Origin: a virus
Lineage: Duplodnaviria; Heunggongvirae; Uroviricota; Caudoviricetes
DNA: 5,107 bases
IMG/VR virus record: IMGVR_UViG_3300000301_000108
Direction: 5' to 3' (one strand)
Both the position numbers and the translations under genes were made by a program. Positions within the stretch are counted from its first letter, which is position 1; each line of letters starts with the position of its first letter. A model generated the notes under the pieces. The model ran no database searches. It saw only the letters and a list, made by a program, of their open reading frames with translations, and had not been told where the DNA came from. Shown in pieces: positions 1-5,107 of the stretch.

Positions 1-109
1 AAATCGGTGGAGCTGCATGACAAAGTCATCGGGCATTATCTGAACATAAAACACCATCAATAAGTTGGAGTCATTACCGAAAATACTCAAATGCCCTCCT
101 CATTGGACG

Positions 110-141
110 AAAAAAATGCTGGTGGGAGCACTCCACCAGCA
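110..141 (-). terminator. Rho-independent terminator closing the minus-strand gene array
   Basis: Perfect 9-bp inverted repeat TGCTGGTGG (117-125) / CCACCAGCA (133-141) with a 7-nt loop. On the minus-strand transcript the hairpin is followed directly by a run of 7 U (plus-strand A-run 110-116). It sits about 22 nt downstream of the TGA stop at 163-165. Confidence 0.65.
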
Positions 142-162
142 TTAAAAGTGACACTGTAACTA

Positions 163-1396
163 TCAGCGAACGTAAATAGTGCCGCCGTTCTCTTTTTCCC
201 ATGCATCGCTACGTGCATAGCAAACATCGAGAAGTCTTCTTGCCGCAGTTTCCTCTAAACCCAATTCGACAACCAACTGCTCATGACGGCGGGTAACCAC
301 ATCAAACAGGGTATGCAGCCCTTTAGTTGCCAGATCATCAATGAATTCCGGTTCGAACGGCAGCTCTGCATCTGCCAACATAACCTCTTGCGCCCACTCA
401 ACTCGACGGACCAATTCCGGGCGGCGGCTTTCCATCTCTTTACAGATCAATTCATGGAAGAACTCTACCCAACCTTCCGGCTGAAACTCGCGGAAAATTG
501 CCAACGGCTGGAAGTTTGGCATCAACCATTCGTTGATTCGGATATCAATGGCATAGCCCATGTCGCAGCAGAACTGATAAGCAAAGTCCCGCTTAGAAAC
601 GATATAAGGACGCTCGTTATTGAACTCTTTAGGCGATGAGATCCCATAAGCCAGGAGGCGCGGGAAGAAGGAGATTTGCCCTAACGTCGGATGAAGTTTG
701 CTTGCAGGGAAACGGCGCTNNNNNNNNNNNNNNNNNNNNNNNNNNNNNNNNNNNNNNNNNNNNNNNNNNNNNNNNNNNNNNNNNNNNNNNNNNNNNNNNN
801 NNNNNNNNNNNNNNNTTTCCTTCTTGAGCGTCGCAAATTTGGCATTCTCATTAACCAGCGCGGTAACCTCTGCTTTTTTATTAGCAAATGCCACGCGCGC
901 CTCGCTTGCATCTTTAATAGTTTTTTTGAGCTGTTGGTTAAGGTCGGCGACCTGCTTACGCAGTTCCTGTCGCTCGCTTTTAGCTTTGTTATAGCGTTTC
1001 TCAAGGTTAAAAGGATCAAGTTTCATGATCTCTTTATATTGAGATTTTAGCGTTGAAATCTGTAAGTTCCGCAGTTCAACCATCGCGGTCATTTCATTGA
1101 GTTTTGTTTCCAGCTCAATGCTTATACGTTCGGCATTATCAGCACGCTGGTTGGCGTCATGCGTCGCATCGTCGATCGCGTCCTGTTGCTGGCGTTTCAA
1201 ATGTTCAATTTGCAGCTGAAGCTCTTCAATTTCTTTACCCTTCAGACCGAGATCCAACTGCATATTTTCAGCTGCATCTACCAGGGAGTTATGGCTATCA
1301 GCTTCTGCGTTATAAACATCAATAAGCTGTGCGTGAAGCATCTCCGCTGACTGAACCGCATTATCAAAAAAACGTGCTGTGAGGTCATCACAACTA
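163..1396 (-). CDS. Large hypothetical protein: N-terminal coiled-coil region plus C-terminal globular domain of unknown function; 5' end hidden in masked run 1397-1486
   Basis: Long minus-strand ORF with stop TGA at 163-165. The frame is open on both sides of the in-gene N-run 720-815 (96 nt, frame-preserving) and stays open from 1341 up into the N-run 1397-1486. The N-terminal half is rich in E/K/Q/L with heptad-like periodicity (e.g. EIEELQLQIEHLKRQQQ). The C-terminal ~200 aa are aromatic/Cys-containing and globular-looking. No family recognised by eye. Confidence 0.8.
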
Positions 1397-1486
1397 NNNN
1401 NNNNNNNNNNNNNNNNNNNNNNNNNNNNNNNNNNNNNNNNNNNNNNNNNNNNNNNNNNNNNNNNNNNNNNNNNNNNNNNNNNNNNN

Positions 1487-1586
1487 GCGCGGCCCGGATG
1501 TTCTGGATAATGGCCGGGATACCGGCATTCAGGACATCAGGGATAGATACATTTTCGATTGATTGGTTTTGTGCTGAAGTGCTCAT
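1487..1586 (-). CDS. Small hypothetical protein; only the N-terminal 33 codons are visible (MSTSAQNQSIENVSIPDVLNAGIPAIIQNIRAA), 3' end hidden in N-run
   Basis: ATG at 1584-1586 lies 1 nt after the TGA stop of the upstream 72-aa ORF (TGAAATG arrangement), with a weak GGAA Shine-Dalgarno. Its frame differs from the large downstream ORF, so it must end inside the masked run 1397-1486 unless there is a frameshift. Confidence 0.4.
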
Positions 1587-1587
1587 T

Positions 1588-1806
1588 TCAAAGTTCCGTA
1601 TTAGCTTGTGCTTCGGTCATTTTTCCTAAGTATGAAGGTGGAAGGACTACGCAATTTGTATCCAGTCCCTCACCTATGGCAGCCTGTAAAATTCTGGCTA
1701 AGGTGAGTCTCTTGTTGCGATACCTGGTGATGACATGCCTGATACCGCCGGTCGGCGTAACAAAGGCGATCAGCCAGTAGTGATATTTCCGTCGGAATGG
1801 CCACAT
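1588..1806 (-). CDS. Hypothetical 72-aa protein
   Basis: ATG at 1804-1806 preceded by AAGGTG (Shine-Dalgarno-like) 4 nt upstream on the minus strand. Stop TGA at 1588-1590 abuts the next start. No recognisable domain by eye. Confidence 0.5.
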   Translation of the reverse strand: MWPFRRKYHYWLIAFVTPTGGIRHVITRYRNKRLTLARILQAAIGEGLDTNCVVLPPSYLGKMTEAQANTEL

Positions 1807-1820
1807 AGTGCACCTTGTGG

Positions 1821-1886
1821 ATTGCTCTAATAAAAAACATGATGAGTGTACATCACGTTTTAAAAATAATGAATTATTAGAGCAAT
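1821..1886. promoter_or_regulatory. Nested inverted repeat / stem-loop inside the 97-bp intergenic gap (1807-1903)
   Basis: Outer perfect 13-bp inverted repeat ATTGCTCTAATAA (1821-1833) / TTATTAGAGCAAT (1874-1886). Inner imperfect 11-bp repeat AAAACATGATG (1834-1844) / CATCACGTTTT (1851-1861) with a 6-nt loop. On the minus-strand transcript the inner hairpin is followed by a U-rich tract (UUUUUUAUU). Confidence 0.5.
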
Positions 1887-1903
1887 ATTATTCTGATTCT
1901 CGC

Positions 1904-2590
1904 TCAAAAAAATGAGCTGATAAGGGGAAGCCAATCCTCTGACACTTCGCGAGGTCGCGGTTTGCCGTGGAAAAAGATTATTCGGCAGTCTTTTGGTAAT
2001 GCCCCATTCCCCCTGGAGTAACGCGCGCTCGCATATTTCGAACCAGGTTCCACAACATCGGCCTTGTAACTTACAAACCATCCCGGATACAGATCCTGAA
2101 ATGCTGGTGTATCATCACCCATAACCTTCCGCAAAAACCCCTGATCACCCCAGCATTCAGTAGTAACACAACGAGCAATCCAACCTTCCGGATCTTGCCA
2201 GAATGCACTCCAGATATGCGCTTTTACACTATTTGGTATCCACAGGGCACCGCTGCCACGATATTGTGGATGGTAAAAATCCCTAAGCATGGTGAAGCTG
2301 GTTGGTGGATTCTCTAGGATTGGGCGTATATCACCGGCAATAACCGTGTCCAAATCCAGATAGAACAGATCATCGGTTATATCCGGTCGGAACAACTCGA
2401 TTTTCGCCCACCAGCCACGGCACTTTTGCCACTGGTTGATCAATGGGACAACTTTGACGCCAGGTACATGTAAACGCTTCAGGTCTGTCAGGCAAATAAT
2501 TTCATAGCCTTTTGGCAGTTGATTAACCAGCCACTGCACATCGGAAGCGTTATAGTCACCACCAGAGCGAAGAACTAAAGCAATCTTCAT
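1904..2590 (-). CDS. GT-A fold glycosyltransferase, GT8-like (retaining-type signature), about 229 aa
   Basis: ORF from ATG 2588-2590 to stop TGA 1904-1906. Motifs: N-terminal MKIALVLRSGGDYNA (compare GT8 starts such as LgtC MDIVFAADDNYA), DxD-type ...WWAKIELFRPDITDDLFYLDLDTVI (compare LgtC YARLKLGEYIADCDKVLYLDIDVLV), and C-terminal IFFHGKPRP (compare the GT8 H-x-G-x-x-KPW motif). The start could lie further upstream inside N-run 2594-2787. Confidence 0.7.
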   Translation of the reverse strand: MKIALVLRSGGDYNASDVQWLVNQLPKGYEIICLTDLKRLHVPGVKVVPLINQWQKCRGWWAKIELFRPDITDDLFYLDLDTVIAGDIRPILENPPTSFTMLRDFYHPQYRGSGALWIPNSVKAHIWSAFWQDPEGWIARCVTTECWGDQGFLRKVMGDDTPAFQDLYPGWFVSYKADVVEPGSKYASARYSRGNGALPKDCRIIFFHGKPRPREVSEDWLPLISSFF

Positions 2591-2666
2591 GCTNNNNNNN
2601 NNNNNNNNNNNNNNNNNNNNNNNNNNNNNNNNNNNNNNNNNNNNNNNNNNNNNNNNNNNNNNNNNN

Positions 2667-3356
2667 NNNNNNNNNNNNNNNNNNNNNNNNNNNNNNNNNN
2701 NNNNNNNNNNNNNNNNNNNNNNNNNNNNNNNNNNNNNNNNNNNNNNNNNNNNNNNNNNNNNNNNNNNNNNNNNNNNNNNNNNNNNNNAAACGATCTGCGC
2801 CAGAAATTTCGCCACCAATATCATCCATCGAATCACTGATACGCTCGCGCGCCCAGACAACGTTGAAAAGCGGCACCTCCTTACCGAATTGATATTCATT
2901 ATCCGGATAGTCGGCATGGGCTATAACGATAGTTTCTTGCCCGGTGTTCAACTCAATGATATAGGGCAGTCGTCTTACCAACTCCACCAGCGCCCTGGCT
3001 AATATTTCCTGATCAGCGTCCAGCATGAAGAACCATTGACCGCCATTCATTAGCCAGTTATTCACGTTGCCATCTGGACTTAACGCATCAATCATCAGCC
3101 GCTCATGGTTCCCCATCACTGCCCTGAACCAGGGCATCTGCAATAGTTCCAGACATTCGACATTTTCAGTACCGCGATCGATAAGGTCGCCGACCGATAT
3201 CAGTAAATCCTGCGCCGGGTCAAAATCCACACGATGGAGTTCGGACATCAGTCTGGTGTAGCAACCATGCAGATCACCAACAACCCAGACATTCCTGTAT
3301 TTGGTACCGTCGATACGGTGATAAATTGTGGGTGCCATCATGTATTCTTCAGCCAT
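2667..3356 (-). CDS. Ser/Thr protein phosphatase, phage lambda PPase (ORF221/NinI)-like metallophosphoesterase
   Basis: Translation aligns along its visible length to lambda phosphatase: [78 protein letters not shown]. It contains the PPP-family GDxHG / GDxxDRG / GNHE motifs. The C-terminal ~40 codons are masked, so the 3' end (~2667) is estimated from lambda PPase length. Start may be ATG 3356 or the downstream ATGs at 3341/3338. Confidence 0.9.
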
Positions 3357-3964
3357 TCTTTAAGAGTCATCTGCGGAATACCTCCCATTTTCCCGCATGA
3401 AACAACGTCAATCTGTTCACGCGCAGACTGGAATAACAAAGGCAGGTGACTTAGATTTTTTGGCGTGCCGCCGGAGTGAACGCGTGGTTCTTGTGTAGCG
3501 TCAACGCCCACCAGGGCGACATGTTTGAATCCGATATGGAAAGCCAGGTTCAGAGCACCATATGCACTATTGCCGCTGGCAATTTCATTCTCATCTTCGC
3601 AAAGGCCGAAATGTGCGGACCAGCGCCACGCCCACCACTCGGGAGAATTCGTATTTTTTGGCTCCGTGCCGCGCTCAGCCACACGACGGAAGCACAGAAC
3701 GCCATCTCTGACTTCACGTTCTTTAACATCGGGTAGTGCCATGCAATAACAAACACCACGGCGACGGCGGCCACGACCAACGCGCCGCATATTGTCTGGC
3801 GATGGATCAAGGGTGAAAAAATAAGAAGCGCGGTTAAGCCAGTCGATGGCCCCATTGACCGCTATAATCGGCACTCCGCGCGGCGCAACAAAGTTTGCGG
3901 CGCTTGGGCCACTGCCGACGATAATAACGCGATCACTGCCTCTAAATTTATTCTTGGGAAACAT
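3338..3964 (-). CDS. Sialyltransferase-like / DUF115 (MptE/Maf-like) fold protein, paralog A (208 aa)
   Basis: ATG 3962-3964, stop TGA 3338-3340. N-terminal motif [10 protein letters not shown]...[11 protein letters not shown] resembles the h-h-h-G-N/S-GPSL ... N motif of Cst-II-type sialyltransferases and DUF115/Maf proteins. Internal [26 protein letters not shown] matches the second conserved block of that fold. The stop overlaps the phosphatase start (TGATG). Confidence 0.75.
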
Positions 3965-4482
3965 TGAATTGCACTGCTCCTACTTGCATTCAAAATATGT
4001 AAATCTGCGTGTTTTTTGCGGGTATCCAGGAACTGCTGTTGCCATTTTGAAATAGACACCTGCGTTGGATTCCGTAGGGCTTGAGGGTGCGCGCCATGCC
4101 AATGAAGGCCGTTTTGCAGAGAACAGTCATAGCCGACTAATACCACTACTTCAGCCCCTGATTCAGCAGCCAGACTGATAGCCTGCGCGCCGCTATTTAC
4201 CCCTTCCGCCGGTCCACAATATCGCCTGTACTCCAACGAAAATGATTTCGCCGCCGCCAGGTTGGCTGTCACTTTGCGGAATCTCCCTCCCGGTATGGTG
4301 GATCCGTATTGCTTCCACCATGACAAATCACCGGCGTATAAGGCATAAATGTCATCGAACATCTGCCAGGAATTGTTAACCGCGATGATTGAACAGCCAG
4401 TTTTTTCTATAGCAGCACAGTCCTCACGAGTGAGTGACGGACCGCTACCGACACAAAAAACAGTCCTAGTCGCCCTGGGTGG
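3862..4482 (-). CDS. Sialyltransferase-like / DUF115 (MptE/Maf-like) fold protein, paralog B; 5' end hidden in N-run 4483-4598
   Basis: The frame is open from stop 3862-3864 upward past the annotated ATG at 4362 into the N-run. The upstream extension reads ...TRTVFCVGSGPSLTREDCAAIEKTGCSIIAVNNSWQMFDD, the same GSGPS...IIAVN signature as paralog A, so the true start is upstream of 4362 (probably just inside the N-run). Second block SGAQAISLAAESGAEVVVLVGYD is present. Confidence 0.7.
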   Translation of the reverse strand, partial: PPRATRTVFCVGSGPSLTREDCAAIEKTGCSIIAVNNSWQMFDDIYALYAGDLSWWKQYGSTIPGGRFRKVTANLAAAKSFSLEYRRYCGPAEGVNSGAQAISLAAESGAEVVVLVGYDCSLQNGLHWHGAHPQALRNPTQVSISKWQQQFLDTRKKHADLHILNASRSSAIQCFPRINLEAVIALLSSAVAQAPQTLLRRAECRL

Positions 4483-4598
4483 NNNNNNNNNNNNNNNNNN
4501 NNNNNNNNNNNNNNNNNNNNNNNNNNNNNNNNNNNNNNNNNNNNNNNNNNNNNNNNNNNNNNNNNNNNNNNNNNNNNNNNNNNNNNNNNNNNNNNNNN

Positions 4599-4697
4599 AT
4601 TCATTTCAGCGATTACCGGGTCCACTACAGCATCTGCTTCCTGTTCATTACGCGGCATGATCGATGCCAGCGATTCATAATTAGCCTTGAATGACAC
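4599..4697 (-). CDS. Small hypothetical ORF (MSFKANYESLASIMPRNEQEADAVVDPVIAEMN...), 3' end hidden in N-run
   Basis: GTG at 4695-4697 preceded by GGGAGA with 6-nt spacing (a strong Shine-Dalgarno). The ORF track extends this frame to a GTG at 4739, which lacks an SD. Its frame differs from paralog B, so it must terminate inside the masked run. Confidence 0.35.
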
Positions 4698-4739
4698 GAT
4701 TATTCTCCCGATGTTAATGTGCGCTATATCAAAGAGCAC

Positions 4740-4808
4740 ATATGCACTAATTAATTTATTATTTTAAGCAGCATACAACCACTTGTCGCCGTTCAATACA
4801 TGCTCAAT
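4740..4808 (-). promoter_or_regulatory. AT-rich intergenic region, candidate internal promoter for downstream minus-strand genes
   Basis: About 70-bp AT-rich stretch between the VRR-NUC-like gene and the next ORF. The minus strand carries TTGAAC and TTGTAT -35-like hexamers and TATGCT / ATTAAT -10-like hexamers, but no pair has ideal spacing. Confidence 0.25.
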
Positions 4809-4903
4809 NNNNNNNNNNNNNNNNNNNNNNNNNNNNNNNNNNNNNNNNNNNNNNNNNNNNNNNNNNNNNNNNNNNNNNNNNNNNNNNNNNNNNNNNNNNN
4901 NNN

Positions 4904-5107
4904 AAGGCTTATGTATTCCAGGATGGCGGTTATCGCTTGTTCTGCACCATACGCAAGAACGACGTAGTAACCTTCCTCTCTAAGCCTGCGCATCCAGGCG
5001 ATCTGCTCTTTCGTCGGGGCTTTACCATTTGGTTCTTTAAGCTCAATTCGCATGCGGTGATGCTGCCAACTTACTGATTTAGTGTATGATGGTGTTTTTG
5101 AGGTGCT
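4904..5107 (-). CDS. VRR-NUC domain (PD-(D/E)xK-type) nuclease-like protein, partial: 5' end beyond window, 3' end inside N-run 4809-4903
   Basis: Minus-strand frame is open from the window edge. Visible sequence ...RMRIELKEPNGKAPTKEQIAWMRRLREEGYYVVLAYGAEQAITAILEYISL matches the C-terminal half of VRR-NUC domains (E-x-K catalytic motif, then a helix). Such genes are typical of lambdoid early regions. Confidence 0.6.

Follow-up and report, generated by a model that had tools for sequence, protein, structure and literature searches.

The hairpin that carries a Chi octamer in each of its arms near the left end of the window (the whole 5,107-nucleotide stretch of viral DNA analyzed here) is probably, with a likelihood of roughly 0.8, an intrinsic terminator or attenuator that ends the C1-controlled pmgR-pmgS transcript of bacteriophage P1, and termination is expected to take place there in vivo. 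Judged by its sequence, the window is DNA of P1 or of an IncY phage-plasmid and not of phage lambda. The features discussed below are collected in Table 1.

Table 1. Position, strand, and basis of the features of the window; positions count from its first nucleotide.
Feature	Position	Strand	Basis and remarks
Right end of an IS1 copy, foreign to P1 at that position	1..78	+	97.4% identity to bases 78-1 of the annotated P1 IS1
pap remnant truncated by IS1: TTG start (90-88) and three further codons	79..90	-	P1 pap CDS start = 83787
T7 tract of the probable terminator (A7 on the + strand)	110..116	-	Last two T pair at the stem base
Probable intrinsic (Rho-independent) terminator hairpin, 3′ of pmgS	115..143	-	Fold and terminator scan; 19 nt past the pmgS stop (163-165)
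Chi octamer GCTGGTGG	118..125	+	Exact; P1 minus-strand site 83752, against the local orientation trend
Chi octamer	133..140	-	Exact; P1 plus-strand site 83737, in the orientation of most Chi over the 16 kb upstream of pac
pmgS, putative morphogenetic/scaffold-like protein	163..1586	-	Interrupted by two masked N runs; stop codon 163-165
pmgR, first gene of the C1-controlled pmgR-pmgS operon	1588..1806	-	ORF list and P1 annotation
PpmgR promoter and C1 operators (former Op86a/b), approximate	1821..1886	-	P1 annotation 82152-82217, mapped via the alignment
Chi in pmgQ	2408..2415	-	P1 81624, + strand in P1
Chi in ppp	2984..2991	-	P1 81125, + strand in P1
Left end of another IS1 copy, oriented like the first; truncates pmgM	5056..5107	+	100% identity to bases 768-717 of the IS1 in P1

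A Probable Terminator Hairpin Downstream of pmgS

The sequence at positions 110-143 (aaaaaaATGCTGGTGGgagcactCCACCAGCATt) contains a stem of 11 bp, the arms of which, AATGCTGGTGG (115-125) and CCACCAGCATT (133-143), enclose the 7-nt loop GAGCACT (126-132). In the RNA of the minus strand this hairpin is the centroid structure, a 71-nt stretch having a minimum free energy of -23.1 kcal/mol (z = -2.95), and a scan of the window for terminator-like structures ranks it at the top, with 11 pairs, six of which are G-C, and the tail TTTTTCGTCC. The elements of an intrinsic terminator are all present, i.e., a stable G+C-rich hairpin, a T7 tract directly 3′ of the stem and a gene upstream on the same strand; the preliminary description of a terminator-type hairpin is thereby borne out in its fold, its T7 and its place after pmgS. 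The T tract is found on the minus strand only, the stem being followed on the plus strand by TTAAAAG, which makes a poor terminator, and the hairpin would therefore terminate leftward transcription out of pmgS. RNA polymerase moving along the minus strand would transcribe AAUGCUGGUGG-AGUGCUC-CCACCAGCAUU and then the U tract, and hairpin and U tract together would release much of the pmgR-pmgS transcript ahead of pap.

The spacer from the stop codon of pmgS (83714) to the start of pap measures 72 bp in intact P1 and holds the hairpin. No promoter of its own is annotated for pap, and the terminator must therefore be leaky. Published RNA-seq of P1vir infection gives, at 10 min in the wild-type host, log fold changes of 9.99 for pmgS, 8.45 for pap and 9.72 for pmgT, and of 9.09, 7.78, and 9.05, respectively, in a dksA host (PMC8201110 Table S1). 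At the level of genes, pap thus stands about 1.3-1.5 log units under pmgS at 10 min, and the step is almost gone at 30 min (PMC8201110). The step, a modest one, would fit a leaky terminator or attenuator situated ahead of pap.

The hairpin resembles the intrinsic terminators of enterobacteria and their phages by its G+C-rich 11-bp stem, its short loop, the T7 directly after the stem, its position 19 nt past a stop codon and a pairing that was kept by compensatory change in a relative. It differs from them in two respects. On the one hand, its G-rich arm comes 5′, whereas the terminators of E. coli more often have the C-rich arm first. On the other hand, it is placed inside an operon-like row of genes, before the promoterless pap, as a leaky attenuator would be. 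The same 10-bp arms form A-run/T-run terminators in Gottfriedia/Bacillus, Bacteroidetes, and Prevotella genomes, i.e., in bacteria where the GCTGGTGG octamer is not the Chi signal. Two unrelated Chi-rich viral contigs hold terminator-like hairpins with Chi arms in the opposite order, GCCACCAGC-loop-GCTGGTGGC and then a T run (L325, 6446-6466; L318, 3311-3332); Chi-bearing terminator stems thus recur outside P1.

A 60-nt stretch around the hairpin occurs in 542 of 5,426 complete E. coli genomes as a single copy, with 532 of its 544 places on plasmids, 12 on chromosomes and no annotation beneath. A dispersed repeat or mobile hairpin was rejected because of this one copy per genome. An Rfam search of positions 1-719 of the window returned no family match, only a chance-level one (E = 0.81).

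Identity of the Window and Its IS1 Junctions

Positions 79-5061 of the window are colinear with P1 from 83798 down to 79211, at 93-99% identity. The first aligned segment, 79-719 (P1 83798-83158), matches P1, P7, SJ46, RCS47 and similar phages of the genus Punavirus at 97.5-99.4%, and every phage match is to this same group, neither the identity nor the synteny expected of lambda DNA being found. According to the annotation of P1, only ppp has a distant counterpart in lambda, the phosphatase of that phage. Among plasmids, close relatives belong to the IncY P1-like phage-plasmids, about 90 kb in size. The minus strand carries pmgS, pmgR, pmgQ, ppp, pmgP, pmgO, pmgN, and the 3′ part of pmgM, and PmgS is 98-100% identical among P1-like records. 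Motifs of the form ATTGCTCTAATAA are visible in the region of PpmgR and its C1 operators; by the annotation of P1, these drive the pmgR-pmgS operon, the end of which coincides with the hairpin.

Masked N runs occupy positions 720-815, 1397-1486, 2594-2787, 4483-4598, and 4809-4903, which is why pmgS, among other open reading frames, appears in pieces in the ORF list. The five runs replace P1 intervals of 15, 10, 117, 40, and 15 nt and are each 76-81 nt longer than these; the same extra length is seen at the first two runs in an E. coli contig (L460). The extra length may be padding introduced by the masking, or additional DNA of the source. Positions 4599-4808, in the region of pmgN and the Oppp operator, are only 93% identical to P1, compared with 97.5-99.3% in the rest of the window.

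On both sides the P1 sequence gives way to IS1 (Table 1). At the boundary at 78/79, IS1 has inserted secondarily and interrupted pap behind codon 4; in plasmids, IS1 transposases are annotated beneath the match to positions 1-78. This IS1/pap junction is common to at least 12 resistance plasmids among the best matches; in pTetA_020022, it borders a resistance region with IS26, fosA3, sul2, and aph genes. The apparent boundary of the element is the IS1 insertion, which brought a resistance region into a P1-like plasmid. At the other end, P1 homology stops at position 5061 (P1 79211), inside pmgM, which is left without its 5′ two-thirds at the right IS1 end. A P1 segment of 5 kb, from the truncated pmgM to pmgS, is thus bracketed by two IS1 ends in direct orientation. 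The right junction, in pmgM, was not seen among the matches listed.

Conservation of the Hairpin Among Relatives of P1

Across 88 loci of the P1 clade, the arms vary at two of 21 sites and the flanks at 10 of 70. The loci of this clade, about 90 in number, have diverged by 1-3%, which gives little power to separate arms from flanks, and conservation within the clade was rejected as evidence for Chi on that ground. The T tract comprises six to eight T in the 88 relatives, and the loop (126-132) has five variants of 7-8 nt. On the transcribed strand, which is the minus strand of the window, these read AGTGCGC, AGTGCTC (that of the window), AGTGCGTC, AGTGCAC, and ATTGCGC; variation is locally concentrated in the loop, within surrounding sequence that is 98-99% identical. 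One natural variant (L027) reads GTTGGTGG, in which a G.U pair is kept and Chi would be near-inactive by the published rules of recognition (PMC5041463).

A sister lineage, represented by Cronobacter phage JK004 and contig L087, has a PmgS that is 69.5% identical and a hairpin followed by T8 at the same place. Its arms are GCTGATGGG and CCCATCGGC, the natural arms of JK004 being also given as GCTGATGG and CCATCGGC. Compared with P1, both members of one pair have changed, from G-C to A-U, and two other pairs have become G.U wobbles, one of them by a U-A to U-G change; in a covariation count, 96.6% of the alignment cells are paired, vs. 30-70% when the partners are slid, with compensatory evidence that amounts to one independent event. 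Both Chi octamers are gone from the hairpin of this lineage, despite the 103 Chi of the JK004 genome, and their loss argues against an essential role of Chi at the hairpin of the window. In a Salmonella lineage the place is taken by a different and weaker hairpin and pap is absent, and in one further lineage among the relatives' loci compared no hairpin was found at the place. These comparisons support the view that the conserved object is the terminator hairpin and not Chi.

Chi Octamers of the Window and of P1

Both Chi octamers that the preliminary description had placed in the arms are there as exact matches, one on each strand. An octamer that lies wholly inside a perfect stem arm reappears on the other strand, and the two Chi are therefore one observation; any asymmetric signal in a stem shows on both strands and must not be counted twice. 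The window holds four Chi, vs. 0.12 expected, a count that none of 200 shuffles reached. P1 has 50 Chi in 94.8 kb, 31 on the plus and 19 on the minus strand, Chi being its commonest octamer. These 50 sites are already published (Lobocka et al., 2004; Subramaniam and Smith, 2022, as cited in PMC12315714), and both Chi of the hairpin are part of that count and of an already known Chi excess. When measured against the density of P1, about 2.3 Chi would be expected in the approximately 4.4 kb of P1 DNA in the window, and the four that are present are no significant excess; the enrichment for which a count of Chi had been proposed is essentially the background of the element. Equally, the remark that phage lambda lacks Chi sites has no bearing on P1 DNA, P1 being Chi-rich and in need of host RecBCD and RecA (PMC12315714; PMC10028697).

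Chi is likewise over-represented in JK004 and in the P1-like plasmid CP053320.1, which has 61 copies, and is the top octamer in both. The 103 Chi of JK004 (MZ188976.1; L472 + L473) lie in 93.8 kb, i.e., 1.1 per kb or twice the density of P1; E. coli has about one Chi per 4.6 kb, and JK004 about five times that density. The records that carry the Chi of the hairpin come from Escherichia, Salmonella, Shigella, Klebsiella, and Cronobacter, and enteric RecBCD enzymes share this Chi octamer. To recognize 5′-GCTGGTGG-3′, RecBCD must arrive from the 3′ side; it then nicks the DNA 4-6 nt 3′ to the octamer (PMC5041463). By this rule, the octamer at 118-125 is oriented for an enzyme moving from high to low coordinates of the window and that at 133-140 for one moving from low to high; the earlier statement that RecBCD would meet a correctly oriented Chi from either side agrees with it (PMC5041463). 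The 3′ flanks of the two sites (nucleotides 4-7) are CACT and GCTC, which are neither among the preferred contexts, AAGG and AAAA, nor among the most disfavored (PMC5041463). Both octamers could act as Chi.

Between 74 and 90.8 kb of P1, 11 Chi lie on the plus and four on the minus strand, and three of these four partner a nearby plus-strand site. The pac site is at 90.8 kb, and packaging of P1 runs from pac toward lox; the plus-strand Chi would thus face RecBCD entering at the unpackaged pac end. The Chi of the hairpin resemble those of E. coli and of P1 at large in that the octamers are exact and belong to a phage of enteric hosts which is enriched in Chi and depends on RecBCD, and resemble the other Chi of P1 in that one copy is co-oriented with its neighbors upstream of pac. 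They differ from ordinary Chi in being the two arms of one stem, 7 nt apart and opposed, with both predicted nicks in the loop. Opposed Chi on linear or rolling-circle DNA were reportedly used by Dabert, Ehrlich, and Gruss in 1992 to protect such DNA from RecBCD. The hairpin shares with that design one correctly oriented Chi per direction of entry; the sites of that design are engineered or separate and near DNA ends, whereas here they form a natural 29-bp hairpin in mid-genome. A further likeness is to the LLS class of Chi-rich lambdoid phages without a Rec module, which are unrelated to P1 and in which Chi is enriched so that host RecBCD aids recombination (PMC12315714). That paper contains no occurrence of a hairpin or terminator with Chi (PMC12315714), and a full-text literature search found no description of Chi in a terminator, hairpin or palindrome of P1. 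The presence of Chi in the terminator stem is an unremarked detail.

Other Chi Palindromes of P1

A second tight Chi palindrome, AATGCTGGTGGACTGCGCCACCAGC, lies inside gene 25 of P1, a tail gene (P1 77742-77763; L005, approximately 30242-30263), and closely resembles the pmgS terminator. Its arms (CAG CTG GTG ... TCC ACC AGC) keep all six synonymous positions in JK004 and in four other loci sampled outside the P1 clade (L345, L346, L347, and L348). They are also kept in nearly all loci of the P1 clade, two of which have CTG replaced by TTG, removing one Chi. Of the neighboring codons, 18 of 20 vary, including the two codons of the loop. The gene 25 homologue of JK004 is not beside pmgS, the synteny being different, and is found elsewhere in the genome (record approximately 37427); the palindrome motif was not found in the plasmid CP053320. 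The pattern shows selection on the arms in gene 25, which may be aimed at each Chi separately, at the two together or at a hairpin. In the tciB region (P1 70708-70730) there is a third hairpin with Chi, TGCTGGTGGATTTCACCAGCA, which is imperfect: its stem has 8 bp and its second arm is one base short of Chi.

Origin of the Chi Pair

The stem would carry Chi because P1 as a whole is strongly Chi-enriched and depends on host RecBCD and RecA, and, once one arm is Chi, the complementary arm is Chi on the other strand. A non-coding stem one substitution short of Chi, as in JK004, may have drifted or been selected into Chi, and a compensating change in the second arm would then have made the second copy. 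In an E. coli-type host each exact Chi could switch a passing RecBCD, with a nick within the 7-nt loop; whichever side the enzyme came from, it would cross one arm and then meet an active Chi in the other. The P1-plus copy (133-140) would fit the pac-facing trend, and the other copy is probably a by-product of the stem. Pure coincidence of Chi and a terminator arm is not a comfortable account: a stringent scan of P1 gives 14 sites with a hairpin and a T run, among which about 0.03 would be expected to have Chi wholly in an arm and one does, and null models for pairs give P values of 0.008-0.06.

The preliminary description held that the hairpin marks or protects the boundary of a mobile element or a prophage/host junction, and the end of IS1 does lie only 32-37 bp from it in the window. 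However, P1 sequence flanks the hairpin on both sides in P1 and about 90 relatives, an internal position that is followed by an intact pap; the IS1 junction is present in only a subset of plasmids (the 12 best matches), P1 is an extrachromosomal prophage and has no host junction, and nearly all of the E. coli places counted above are on plasmids. What was taken as possible host-like flanking sequence is P1 DNA, and next to no credence can be given to a boundary role. Very improbable, too, is the idea that a dimeric protein, of P1 or of the host, binds the inverted repeat as DNA and that the repeat is no RNA terminator. In favor of such a site are the perfect 11-bp inverted repeat and the very similar palindrome inside gene 25; against it, the loop or spacer is the most variable part, with a length of 7-8 nt within the P1 clade. 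The compensatory pair of JK004 preserves pairing rather than sequence, and a T tract follows the stem directly on the coding strand. Moreover, no known P1 operator is alike, the annotated C1, ParB, RepA, and Lpa sites all being different, and there is no Rfam family match.

Less improbable, yet still unlikely, is the idea that the opposed Chi pair is itself a selected two-way module, which stops RecBCD and loads RecA from either side, a hairpin giving two sites per substitution pair. It is favored by the Chi richness of P1 and its need of RecBCD and RecA, and by two tight and two looser opposed pairs in P1, all in the order GCTGGTGG...CCACCAGC. The P values given above for the tight pairs, against uniform and jittered nulls, point the same way, as do the small number of Chi-bearing terminator arms expected and the gene 25 pair, with its six synonymous arm sites kept in five relatives outside the P1 clade. 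Nevertheless, the pair is missing from the orthologous terminator of the JK004 lineage and no such hairpin exists in the Salmonella lineage. Tight opposed pairs are not in excess in JK004 (103 Chi) or CP053320 (61 Chi), where a trend common to the P1 supergroup had been sought, and both arm orders are about equally frequent in Chi-enriched viral contigs (29 vs. 21 distinct palindromes, or 12 vs. 10 families at enteric G+C, among the matches listed). From the position of pac, the site would lie about 7 kb upstream of it, outside the terminal redundancy of early headfuls, and selection on each Chi singly, or on the hairpin, explains the same data. No good evidence was found that the Chi pair was selected as a unit at this hairpin. 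A broader version, in which opposed Chi hairpins are a selected device of the P1 family, i.e., compact RecBCD switches with nicks in the loop, the pmgS terminator being a recent recruit and the gene 25 pair old, is quite unlikely. Termination of the pmgR-pmgS transcript, with Chi arising in one arm and copied by pairing into the other, stays the preferred reading.

A rule of arm order was also considered, by which GCTGGTGG-loop-CCACCAGC would be favored since each 3′ tail would end in the loop, hairpin-free. As a general rule it was rejected on the counts of palindromes and families just given and on the Chi terminators of reverse order in L325 and L318. The scans of the viral collection returned at least 120 matches for each order, so that the order counts refer to the matches listed; among these, the bias is absent from the short-loop palindromes of Chi-rich viral contigs. 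In P1, JK004, and CP053320 together, opposed Chi within 100 nt number 8 vs. 1 in the GCTGGTGG...CCACCAGC order, a statistically weak difference in which 8 is the number of independent cases, nine having been counted with the gene 25 pair common to P1 and JK004.

Implications

The Chi-bearing hairpin was accurately observed, and it is an ordinary feature of a phage that is very well known. With the window assigned to this well-studied phage and the hairpin explained by routine termination, the result matters little. If it were true that opposed Chi pairs are a selected unit, they would be a small new element in the management of RecBCD by Chi-dependent phages.
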